A DNA stretch of 64,000 bases, taken from the NCBI GenBank assembly GCA_951406725.2, contig OX597830.1, positions 31,062,001 to 31,126,000 on the forward strand, given 5' to 3'. A program made the translations under genes and the position numbers. Below the pieces are notes generated by a model. The model had not been told where the DNA came from and ran no database searches. It was given only the letters and a program-made list of their open reading frames with translations. The stretch's first letter is position 1. Each line of letters begins with the position of its first letter. Of this stretch, positions 40,231 to 55,799 are shown in pieces. This DNA is from Octopus vulgaris (lineage: Eukaryota).

Positions 40231-40514
40231 AACGACAGTGATAAAAGACGCTACTAAATAAAATACTTGCTGTGGCACCAAAATAAAAACAGACATAAAA
40301 AAAAAAACCTCCACCAACAACAAATACAATCGCTCATCACACCTGTCTGTCCCATTCACCATTAATCATCAAAGACCAGAAAACAATTGCTGCTGCTTGT
40401 TGTTGTTGTTGTTGCCATTGTAGATATTTTGTTGTTTATTATTAATTTTTTTGTTCCTCGGCTGTATTGCAAAAAAAAAAAAATAAATAAAAGATGCAAT
40501 AGAACAATAATTGT

Positions 40515-41699
40515 TCTTAATTTATAGGCACGAGGCCAGCAATTGCGAGGGGAAGAGGATAGACGATATGCCACCGAACCCAGAAAACTTAATTTGTACT
40601 TTATTTTATCGACCGCGAAAGGGCGGAAAGGGTAAAAGCTGACCTCGGCAGGATTTCAACTCAGAATATAAAGAGCAAGAGAGAATGAATAACACAAGGC
40701 ATTTTCCATTCCGGCGCTTTGAGGATTCTGCCACTGCCACAACAACAATAATGATAATAATAATTCTTCCTTTTTTACTTTAGGCACAAGGCTGGAAATT
40801 TTAAGGGAGGAGGCACTACTAGTCAATTGCATCGACCCCAGTGCTCAACTGGTGCTTATTTCATCGACCCCCGAAAGGAATGAAAGGAAAAATCGACCTC
40901 AGCGAAATTTGAACTCAGGGAGTGAAGAAGACGAACGAAATGCCGCAAAAAGCATTTTGTCCGGTATTCTGACGAATCTACCAGCTCGCTGCCTGAACAA
41001 CAACAACAACAACAATAATGATTTCAAATTTTGGCACAAGGCCAACAGCTTTGGAGGAGGGGGTTAAACAGATTACACCGACTCCCAGTGCTCGACTGAT
41101 ACTTATTTTATCGACCGCGAAAGGATGAAAGGCAAAGTCGACATCGGCGGAATTTGAACTCAGAACATAGCAGCAGACAAAATACCTATTTCTTTATTAC
41201 CCACAAGGGGCTAAACACAGAGGGGACAAACAAGGACAGACATAGGTATTAAGTCGATTACATCGACCCCAGTGCGTAACTGGTACTTAATTTATCGACT
41301 GCGAAAGGATGAAAGGCAAAGTCGACATCGGCGGAATTTGAACTCAGAACATAGCAGCAGACAAAATACCGCTAAACATTTCGCCGGCCTGCTAACGATA
41401 CTGTCAGCTCGCCGCCTTAAATAATAATAATAATAATAATAATCCTTTCTACGATAGACACAAGGGCTGGATTTTTGTAGGGAAGGGGAATAATCGATCA
41501 TATCGACCCCAGTAATTAATTTTTGTAGGGAAGGGGAATAATCGATTATATCGACCCCTGGTACTTAATTCATCGACCCCGAAAGAATGAAAGGTAAAAT
41601 CGACTTGGGCGGAATTTGAACTCAGAACACGAAGATGGCTGAAATACTGCTAAGCCTTTTTTACCTGGCGTGCTAACGATTCTGCCAACCCGCCGCCTT
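40515..41699 (-). mobile_element. Head-to-tail array of SINE family A copies separated by (AAC)/(AAT)n
   Basis: Copies at ~40515-40740, 40768-40994, 41020-41418 (composite) and 41443-41699, all in the same orientation. Confidence 0.9.
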
Positions 41700-41700
41700 A

Positions 41701-41745
<45 letters not shown>

Positions 41746-42169
41746 CGTCTTATTAATTGCCACAAGGGCGACAGAAGAGAGGACATTACATGTTAATGAT
41801 AATTAAACAAACAAAAACAAACAATAATAATGAACGTAAAAATAAAAAAAAAAATAGAACCAGAAACAAAAAAAAAAAAAGTAACGACAAAAAACACGAG
41901 CAAAACAATGAAATAAAAAAGAAAAAACAGGTTAATAGTTGTGTGTTAGTAATTAAGTAGTGTTTAATTGGATTTTTCTCCGCTACATCTTCCCCGCCCT
42001 CCAACAAACCCCGCCGCCAAACTACTGTAGCAAAGCTTCTTTGCTTCACTAGAGTCGATGTTTTTCATAGAAATAACACAAGCTAGTCTTGTTTCACACT
42101 TTATTTCTCAGACAAGCCAACATAATTACAAACTGTTCTCTCTCTCTCTCTTCTGTGTGTGTGTGAGAG

Positions 42170-52463: not shown

Positions 52464-52876
52464 ATCCTTTCTACTATTGACACAAGGCCTGGAATTTTGT
52501 AGGTGGGGGATAATCGATTACATCAACTACAGTGCGTAACTAGTACCTCATTTATCAACCCCCGAAAGGATGAAAGGTAAAGTAGAGACCTTGACAGAAA
52601 TTGCACTCAGAACATAGCGACGAGCAAAATACTGCTACCCATTTCGTCCAGCGTGCTAACGATTCTGCCAGCTCGCCGCCTTTTTAGTAATAATAATAAT
52701 AATAATAATGATAATAATAATCCTTCAGTGTTTCACTGGTAGTTAATTTATCGACTCCGAAAGAATGAAAGGTAAAGTCAACCTCAACGGAATTTGAACT
52801 CAGAAAGGTAACCTCGGGCGGAATACCGCTAAGTATTTCGTCCAGCGTGCTAACGATTCTACCAGCTCGCCGACTT
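52464..52876 (-). mobile_element. Two tandem SINE family A copies in (AAT)n
   Basis: 52464-52682 and ~52722-52876, each ending GCTAACGATTCT(G/A)CCAGCTCGCCG and flanked by (AAT)n. Confidence 0.9.
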
Positions 52877-52880
52877 TTAA

Positions 52881-52915
<35 letters not shown>

Positions 52916-53867: not shown

Positions 53868-54465
53868 TGAAAAAAATAACTTTAACAGAAAACCAAGCAA
53901 CTTTGTTTTCCTGTCAATTTTGTTCGGTTCAATAAGACGAAATGCGGGTTGTTTTGTAAAGTGAGAGCCGGATGTTACGAATGGTGATGATGCAATTCTC
54001 TCTCTCTCTCTCTCTCTCTACTCTCTCGCACACACCCTCCTATTTCTTGTATTGTTTCAATGTAAATTACTTTGCTTGCTTATTCGACGATAAACACCGT
54101 AACTGATAGACACACACACACACACATACACATTCGAGTAAAGTATATAATTGCACGTAAGTCCACGAACATATATGCCTAGATATTTTGAAACTCACAC
54201 AAGAAACTGAAGTTCAGAAGTTCAGTTCCAGCTAAGCGCCTCTCGTAATCAAATTCACCAAAGTCACTGGAAGCAGAACAGGTTTTGTTGAAGCTACACA
54301 CGTGGTTTGGTGAGACCAGTGTTGTTGTTGCTGTTGGAGGCGATGTTAGGGTGTTATATACACACTTAGAGATGGTGTCAGTGTATATAAGCTCTTAGTG
54401 ACGATGTTGCAGTTACCAATGTGCAATGGATTCAAGTACTGATGTTGTTATTGCTACCATTGGTA

Positions 54466-54698
54466 AAGGCGGCAAGCTGGCAGAACCGTTAGCACGCCGG
54501 GCGAAATGCCTAGCCGTATTTCGTATGGCGTTACGTTCTGAGTTCAAATTCCGCCGAGGTTGACTTTGCCTTTCATCCTTTCGGGGTCGATAAATAAAGT
54601 ACCAGTTTCGCACTGGGGGCGATGTAATCAACTTAATCCCTTTGTCTGTCCTTGTTTGTCCCCTCTGTGTTTAGCCCCTTGTGGGTAATAAAGAAACA
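54466..54698 (+). mobile_element. Full-length SINE family A (tail type 2) with target-site duplication
   Basis: GGCGGCAAGCTGGCAGAACCGTTAG..GAGTTCAAATTCC..GCCTTTCATCCTTTCGGGGTCGATAAA..GCCCCTTGTGGGTAATAAAGAAA. TSD TATTGCTACCATT at 54449-54461 and 54699-54711. Confidence 0.92.
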
Positions 54699-55799
54699 TA
54701 TTGCTACCATTAGTAGTAGTAGTAGTAGTATTTATTTATTTTTATTTATTCTCTCTATTACCACAGGGCTGCATGTACGTAAGAGGAAAAGTACTGCGGT
54801 TGAACCGACTACAAGTACATGATAGGTACTCGATTTATGGAACCTCACAACGAATGATATGTTCAGTTCACATCGAGCAGAATTTGAATGAGGCAATTTA
54901 GTTCTGGTTGGCACTTTGGCCCTATTCCGTTACTTCGCAACCAACTACTTCCATTTCTTATACTGGGCACAGGACACAAAATTTTTTATCGACCCTGGAA
55001 AGATGAAGGACAAAATCAAGCCAACCGGATATGAAACTCACAAAGTAAAATGATCGGCATTACTTCGTTTTGGTGCGTTTTCTTAATCTATCTGTGTTTT
55101 TTATATCTGTCTATCTATTTCTTTCTATATTTTCTGATGCATACCATTAAGTAAATGGTTGTGGACTCGAACGTAGAATACGTAAGTCCGTAATTGGGAA
55201 GTGTTGACCTTACTGCCTACCTACCATCCCACCATATCGATCACCTACGTAGTCATTTTTCCTTTCGCAAAAAATAATTCCAAAAAGCAACCGGAAACAA
55301 CTCTGCTTTAAGAAAATAAAGAACATGGAATAAAAACGGAATAAAACAAAACAAAATTTTAAATAAAAGACAAAAGGCAACGAACAAAATTTAGTAGCAA
55401 TTCTCGTTTTGTTTTATTTATTAGTGTTTTGCACGTTTACTAATTACAATTATTGCTGTTTGTTATTTACAAAAAAAAAAAAAAAATTGTTTGTCTGATG
55501 GTGAATTTGCCATACAATAACCGAAATGGTTCGATTGAAAAGCATAAAACCACACACACACACAAAAAAAGAAACTATTTATAAATGCTATGGATAAGCA
55601 GTCAATCTAATAATTAATCAGAGACTAAAGGTAATTTAGCAGTTGTTGTGGAGAGGGGGTAAGTTTTCGTTGTTCTTGTTGGTAGTTGATTGGGTTAAAT
55701 CTATTGTTGTTGTTGTTGGTGGTGGTGGTGGTGACGGTGGAAAAGAAGGTTGTGTCTGCCGTTGGTGTTATTGTAAGTGTTGTTACTGTTACTCGAAAG

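Follow-up and report, generated by a model that had tools for sequence, protein, structure and literature searches.

Insertion of a young octopus SINE at a fixed site in older copies of its own family and the probable origin of a 70-bp duplication

How SINEs swap their heads and tails is an open question, and homology in the common body acting as a recombination hotspot is one of three hypotheses for this module exchange, none of them demonstrated according to the part of the source compared (PMC5804259). In the closest described system, the crocodilian SINEU elements, the target preference is held in common with Tx1-Mar LINEs and tandem copies arise by sequential insertion; in the sections compared of the same paper an element counts as target-specific when more than 20% of its copies lie in one target (Kojima 2015, PMC4494074). 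The octopus SINE described here likewise has the same target as an L1/Tx1-type LINE, but unlike SINEU, for which those sections give a Mariner DNA transposon target and a short TSD between the tandem copies, its target is the SINE itself. Donor and target are therefore homologous, and the 5' end can be resolved in register.

In the "Anneal" 5' junctions of R2 a seamless junction results when the 3' end of the cDNA anneals to target DNA homologous to it; as described in the portion compared (PMC11331408), R2 anneals upstream of the nick without any duplication, whereas in the octopus the pairing would be downstream and would duplicate 38-91 bp. In L1 templated insertions the growing cDNA detaches from its RNA template, anneals to homologous DNA close by and causes a duplication of less than 250 bp (bioRxiv 10.1101/2024.08.27.596794). 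In the parts of that report used here these events are rare, come from tumours or cultured cells and lie at unrelated sites, while the octopus loci form a fixed and repeated germ-line class in which SINE modules appear to be exchanged. For the TSD1-(SINE)n-TSD1 arrays of the blood clam (PMC11481361) and the SINE-derived sSats of squamates (PMC10702118) unequal recombination was invoked in the passages compared. The octopus arrays resemble them in having one full head followed by head-less units within one TSD, but in those passages a self-targeted site or a partner LINE was not shown, and the octopus has both. The octopus elements OR1/OR2 (Ohshima and Okada 1994) also have a tRNA-like head and are abundant, a likeness that goes by their description in the part of the literature compared. 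A self-targeted SINE insertion with a homology-resolved long duplication was not found in narrow literature searches, made mostly without subscription papers, and this is a weak absence. Since tens of thousands of octopus insertions combine a homologous donor and target with a fixed cut site and subfamilies separable base by base, the 5'-junction step of non-LTR retrotransposition (end-joining, annealing or switching to resident DNA) becomes countable in a natural germ line.

Structure of the nested element

The DNA analysed, called the window throughout, is a stretch of 64,000 nucleotides of Octopus vulgaris (contig OX597830.1, positions 31,062,001 to 31,126,000). Comparison of the window with itself confirmed the predicted exact duplication: 41117-41186 and 41301-41370 are identical, and their 70 bp are the longest exact match, with no possible extension. 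The variants described as peculiar to this pair were also found as stated, GACATCGG having its only two occurrences in the window at 41140 and 41324. Read along the minus strand, the parts are head (41418-41371), duplicated segment D, 114 bp of a tail-2 3' half, D again and the older tail 1, in agreement with the original prediction as to the origin of the middle piece and of the outer tail. D consists of one junction G plus body 1-69, and the G, which is common to both junctions (GCG|GTATTT and ATAG|GTATTT), is counted within its 70 bp.

41371..41418, minus strand: SINE head, tRNA-like, belonging to the outer (resident) copy; divergence about 12%, allele at head position 20 of the old type
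41301..41370, minus strand: first copy of D (junction G and body 1-69), with a B-box-like GTTCAAATTCC at 41333-41343
41290..41300, minus strand: putative switch zone from resident-type to tail-2-type sequence, body 70-80; the shared variants stop at body 69 and tail-2 alleles set in at body 80
41187..41300, minus strand: 3' half (114 bp) from a young tail-2 SINE, covering body 71-184 and equal to the subfamily majority
41117..41186, minus strand: second copy of D, with the fixed landing site (G|GTATTT, between element positions 49 and 50) as its start
41020..41116, minus strand: by sequence reading, the remaining resident body and the older tail 1b, then an (ATT/GTT)n run
54449..54715, plus strand: for comparison, an ordinary full-length tail-2 copy (54466-54698) within its TSD of 13-17 bp

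An L1/Tx1-type LINE has homology at its 3' end to the last 42 columns of the 41187..41300 segment. In the ordinary copy the TSD comprises 13 bases exactly and 17 if one mismatch is allowed, as had been noted earlier for this insertion. The tail-2 SINE is short and non-coding, it has variable TSDs and it is present in very high copy number (94,572 exact genome matches of a tail-2 26-mer); the sequence contains the B-box-like motif, and neither an ARAGORN tRNA gene nor an Rfam tRNA match was obtained. A non-LTR retrozyme or rolling-circle element was rejected, as no Rfam ribozyme match was found at E<=1 in 40500-41900.

The haplotype of D is private to this locus. A 46-mer of it has three matches in 2.8 Gb, two of them here and the third in an unrelated monomer whose sequence departs right after the match, and the shared variants do not recur in many unlinked dimers; such a recurrence was what the original prediction had named as decisive against it. 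A looser 48-mer of D gave 8 further genome matches, all without C69 and none with the heterodimer structure of the window. No progeny of the window chimaera was found by the genome search for the D haplotype, and the chimaera carries two changes in its A-box region. An old resident with a young tail is supported, but a role of this chimaera as a new source element would be conjectural.

A fixed landing site in common with a LINE

The junction 19-mer gave 11,989 exact genome matches and its reversed control none, while the wider junction pattern, tail 2 joined to element position 50, gave 33,613. The insertion point in the head, whose constancy the original prediction proposed to test, is fixed, and a minor site exists besides it: a second fixed junction, tail 2 at head position 17, has 1,738 exact genome matches and belongs mostly to the GGGCA tail subfamily (examples are L076, L081, L217 and L219). 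Among 122 sampled tail-2 ends (the window, together with loci from contig C1 within its first 2.6 Mb, each centred on an exact match of the tail), 55 joined element position 50, 4 were at position 17, 2 had small indels and 61 were scored as non-nested, one of which (L224) appears nested by eye. Older tails at position 50 were seen in 2 matches with one fixed-spacer pattern and at 0 of 174 body starts. A TSD could be detected in 34 of the 61 non-nested copies (median 15 bp), and 21 of the 61 continue with xxGGT. In L204, L208 and L220 GGT/TGT letters stand beyond the tail and are missing from the 5' copy of the TSD, which suggests a short extension on the 3' end of the SINE RNA that would aid priming. 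At L021 a different tRNA-headed SINE family was inserted 14 bases into the downstream body (junction +14).

No LINE was found among the 174 body starts; one was found later, via L131 and L296. In the survey of 331 junction-like sites 5 were without a SINE body upstream, and at L131 a different tail was present. The element found is the following.

L296:4529-9845 (G000:C4): near full-length young L1/Tx1-type LINE (about 5.3 kb), inside a SINE at the fixed site

Its ORF1 has a zinc-knuckle and its ORF2 (endonuclease/RT/zf-RVT) is split across three frames. The domains are zf-CCHC, endonuclease, RVT_1 and zf-RVT, and the best PDB match is human L1 ORF2p (E 1e-52). The Tx1 label is provisional and goes by the ORF layout. 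The LINE is flanked by a TSD of about 15 bp at the SINE landing site, and in 30 of the 30 LINE 3' ends read (the best of 40 scored among 292 candidates) the SINE body at the landing site comes next, nearly always at the CGTATTT variant, versus GGTATTT at the window locus, a difference that weighs against the mechanism favoured below. Many of the LINE copies have 99-100% identical 3' ends. By manual count 34 of the last 42 columns match between the LINE 3' end and tail 2, while tail 1b is without most of this LINE-homologous segment.

The pair has several of the properties expected of a target-specific Tx1 LINE and its SINE: the LINE encodes an APE endonuclease and an L1-group RT, the SINE has the 3' tail of its partner, and both have more than 20% of the copies in one target, all 30 of those best LINE copies and 55/122 of the SINE ends. 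The targeting of the SINE is looser than that of the LINE, about half of the SINE copies being elsewhere. Since the LINE sits at the same site and Tx1 elements choose their targets in this manner, at least in the sections compared (PMC4494074), it is likely that its sequence-specific endonuclease sets the target for the SINE too, and the LINE may also mobilise the tail-2 SINE. Of the earlier view that the SINE targets itself, the self-site stands, but the targeting most likely belongs to the LINE. The 3' end of the SINE RNA as the sole target setter was rejected, as L131 and L296 proved to hold a LINE there. The possibility that a LINE with a poly-A tail uses the site was rejected as well, all 20 loci read (of 59 matches) being A-rich tail-2 variants. 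An array with at least 23 A-rich junctions and a period of about 186 bp lies at G000:C22:10031042-10035335 and could be the seed of a SINE-derived satellite.

Ages of the units, 5' ends and duplicated tracts

The pattern tail 2, body and tail 1b has 155 genome matches, of which 90 were fetched and 65 left out. With the window these made 91 loci, and after removal of L120, L170 and L189, in which the upstream unit was deleted or misaligned, 88 heterodimers were scored. Over body 1-119 the divergence was 12.5% in the downstream and 4.0% in the upstream unit, the downstream (resident) unit was the more diverged one in 86/88, and the two divergences were uncorrelated (rho -0.03). The residents do not cluster, their nearest neighbours being at a median of 15% and under 8% in 2/88 only. 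Tail-1a residents are older than the insert in 15/17 cases, and residents at 41/113 junctions are not of the tail-2 type. These heterodimers are independent insertions into unrelated old residents and not copies of a dimeric master.

In dimeric SINEs of the Alu/Bov-A2 kind the units are co-inserted, of the same age and common across loci. This class was rejected for the octopus element on account of the private haplotype, the age gap in 86/88 and the unclustered residents. Pairs of two tail-2 units have no age polarity (22 vs 16 of 43), and variants common to such neighbours extend through the unit as far as about position 140, so that DNA-level exchange does act on these arrays; both observations weigh against insertion-time copying.

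A head immediately precedes the upstream unit at 63 loci, of which 7 were two-headed (a full-length insert with a short TSD) and 56 single-headed. The single heads are mosaic, with the old allele at head position 20 in 33/56 against 7/37 of the tail-2 monomers (p 0.0002). The divergence of old-type heads was only marginally above that of young-type ones (0.085 vs 0.052, p 0.06). No relation was seen between the divergence of the head and that of the resident (rho 0.12), and both results weigh against insertion-time copying. The single-head class would be equally compatible with annealing at insertion and with later loss of one head, and it is uninformative between them because either needs only the head and a 15-bp TSD. 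The usual outcomes are a TSD of about 15 bp or one seamless head, and long in-register copying of the resident is a recurring minority class, to which the 70-bp duplication belongs.

This class was detected as long runs of rare variants shared between the two units, at LLR>=10 in 5/88 loci and in 0/3000 cross-locus pairs. All 5 strong tracts begin at the first informative site. Since a 15-bp TSD is too short, the long-tract class needs another origin. Where the resident has an old-type start, the upstream unit had an old-type start in 35 matches and a young-type start in 152, and none of the 37 tail-2 monomers had an old-type start. From the 35, some of which lie in arrays, 30 were fetched and 5 left out; 10 of the 30 consisted of a head, a unit and a non-tail-2 resident, and 6 of these 10 share resident alleles over at least 38 bp, a proportion which, unlike 5/88, comes from a set enriched for old-type starts. 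Stretches of 38-91 bp with resident alleles repeatedly precede young tails, and the direction of copying, resident to insert, is clear at L268, L270, L277, L280, L285 and L291, of which L280 is a near twin of the window structure. In 16 pooled tracts the difference between the two copies amounts to 0.029 per copy, and the private changes of the tails to 0.033; locus by locus the correlation of the two clocks was not significant (rho 0.30, p 0.26, n 16, the doubtful tracts L272 and L295 included). L187, where 91 bp are duplicated exactly and the tail is pristine, is without the private variants of its upstream neighbour and would fit a fresh insertion. From the 33,613 junctions, about one third with non-tail-2 residents and about 5% with long tracts, the number of long-tract loci in the genome may roughly be put at several hundred.

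L138, one of the 5 strong tracts, has a recombinant middle unit that is better explained by unequal crossover, and L148 is an exact unit duplication; as judged from these, some arrays grow by unequal exchange. The suggestion that nested insertion produces 184-bp-period arrays does not extend to L138 and L148. At L178 the upstream unit has the old-type and the resident the young-type start, reciprocal to the usual pattern, which suggests a read-through RNA priming deeper in the body.

Origin of the duplication and surroundings of the element

We favour, with somewhat better than even confidence, the explanation that a young tail-2 SINE entered the fixed site of an older copy and that 70 resident-type bases were duplicated by an in-register switch of the cDNA. 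The LINE protein would nick the bottom strand at resident position 49/50, a GGU(AUUU) extension on the SINE RNA 3' end may assist this endonuclease step, and reverse transcription of the tail-2 RNA would then start at the 3' end. In-register pairing of the cDNA with the resident top strand, or alternatively with a top-strand end cut equally far downstream, would follow at body 70-80, and synthesis would recopy the resident D. The product would be old head, resident D and new tail, followed by a regenerated landing site, the duplication having formed at insertion by a strand-annealing switch. SDSA-like switching of L1 cDNA was reportedly described earlier, by Gilbert et al. in 2005. Chimaeras of an old head and a new tail could seed new subfamilies.

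As for the self-targeted, homology-assisted insertion originally predicted, the fixed self-target, the independence of the events, the old residents under young tails and the recurring copying of residents all speak for it, and what weakens it at the window is the possibility of later gene conversion. An ordinary tail-2 insertion with a short TSD and a seamless or later collapsed head, its D copies 184 bp apart being homogenised afterwards by gene conversion or unequal exchange, is in our estimate rather unlikely. Its best argument is that body 11-16 of D in the window carries alleles of the tail-2 type (present in just 15/88 residents and 2/30 tail-1b monomers), which make the copying direction less sure and keep later conversion the main rival at this locus; the recombinant unit of L138, the duplicated unit of L148, the variants common to tail2-tail2 neighbours along most of the unit, and L126, which could be an insert-to-resident conversion, point the same way. 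However, a single unequal crossover would presumably yield a trimer and not the dimer of the window, each of the 5 strong tracts is tied to the junction, and the pooled tract age is near the tail age. Furthermore, D is far more mutated than its own tail: compared with the subfamily majority the upstream unit of the window has 7 differences in body 1-70 and 0 in 71-184, and a contrast of this kind (7/70 vs 0/114; Fisher p 0.001) was found in 0/42 subfamily units, though a stricter count of the private variants gives p 0.05.

Both copies of D could also derive from the read-through RNA of one dimeric source (head-D-tail2-D), primed by the long homology at resident body ~70. RNA extensions past the tail (L204, L208, L220) and the old prefix upstream of a young one in L178 would agree with this, but the genome search gave no source or sibling with the window D haplotype and the 8 looser 48-mer matches lack C69 and the window heterodimer, so we regard it as improbable. 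An assembly artefact is very unlikely, although no spanning read or contig was obtained: at 90% likeness the Logan contigs were swamped by family copies, and at 99% the yield was 0, 2 and 0 reads from three raw runs and short pieces only from one contig set. The same architecture, however, is present at other loci, several with post-duplication mismatches (L129/L270, L268, L277, L291), and the middle segment is of a different subfamily and not a repeat of the flank. That the whole structure was copied from a dimeric master element is hardly credible; many multimers do lie within one outer TSD, but the window variants are private and the residents are older and mutually unrelated.

With the in-register switch as the preferred reading, a wider one may be put forward tentatively, as possible rather than probable: a SINE with a captured LINE tail would be aimed at its own head, and target-primed insertion would act as module exchange. 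Its cDNA would pair with the very resident that had been cut, so that at hundreds of loci old promoters would acquire an active tail and the landing site would be regenerated each time. If this is true, old copies become potential new source elements and array seeds, and a concrete route is offered from a SINE to head-less tandem arrays.

At 40590-41745 on the minus strand the nested element lies within a series of five or more older family copies arranged head to tail. Tracts of (ATT)n/(GTT)n lie between them, as though tail-1 copies had entered the microsatellite tails of one another. The AATACCTAT variant of the tail-2 subfamily of the window is complementary to the junction ATAGGTATT (41176-41193 and 41238-41255); the two pair in a predicted RNA fold, which would fit an RNA running beyond the tail, the fold having a z of -1.16, not significant. 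The adjoining old copy carries a 48-bp internal tandem duplication at 41471-41570, and a tandem pair of family copies with a period of 194 and (TAA)n spacers is found at 52468-52913.
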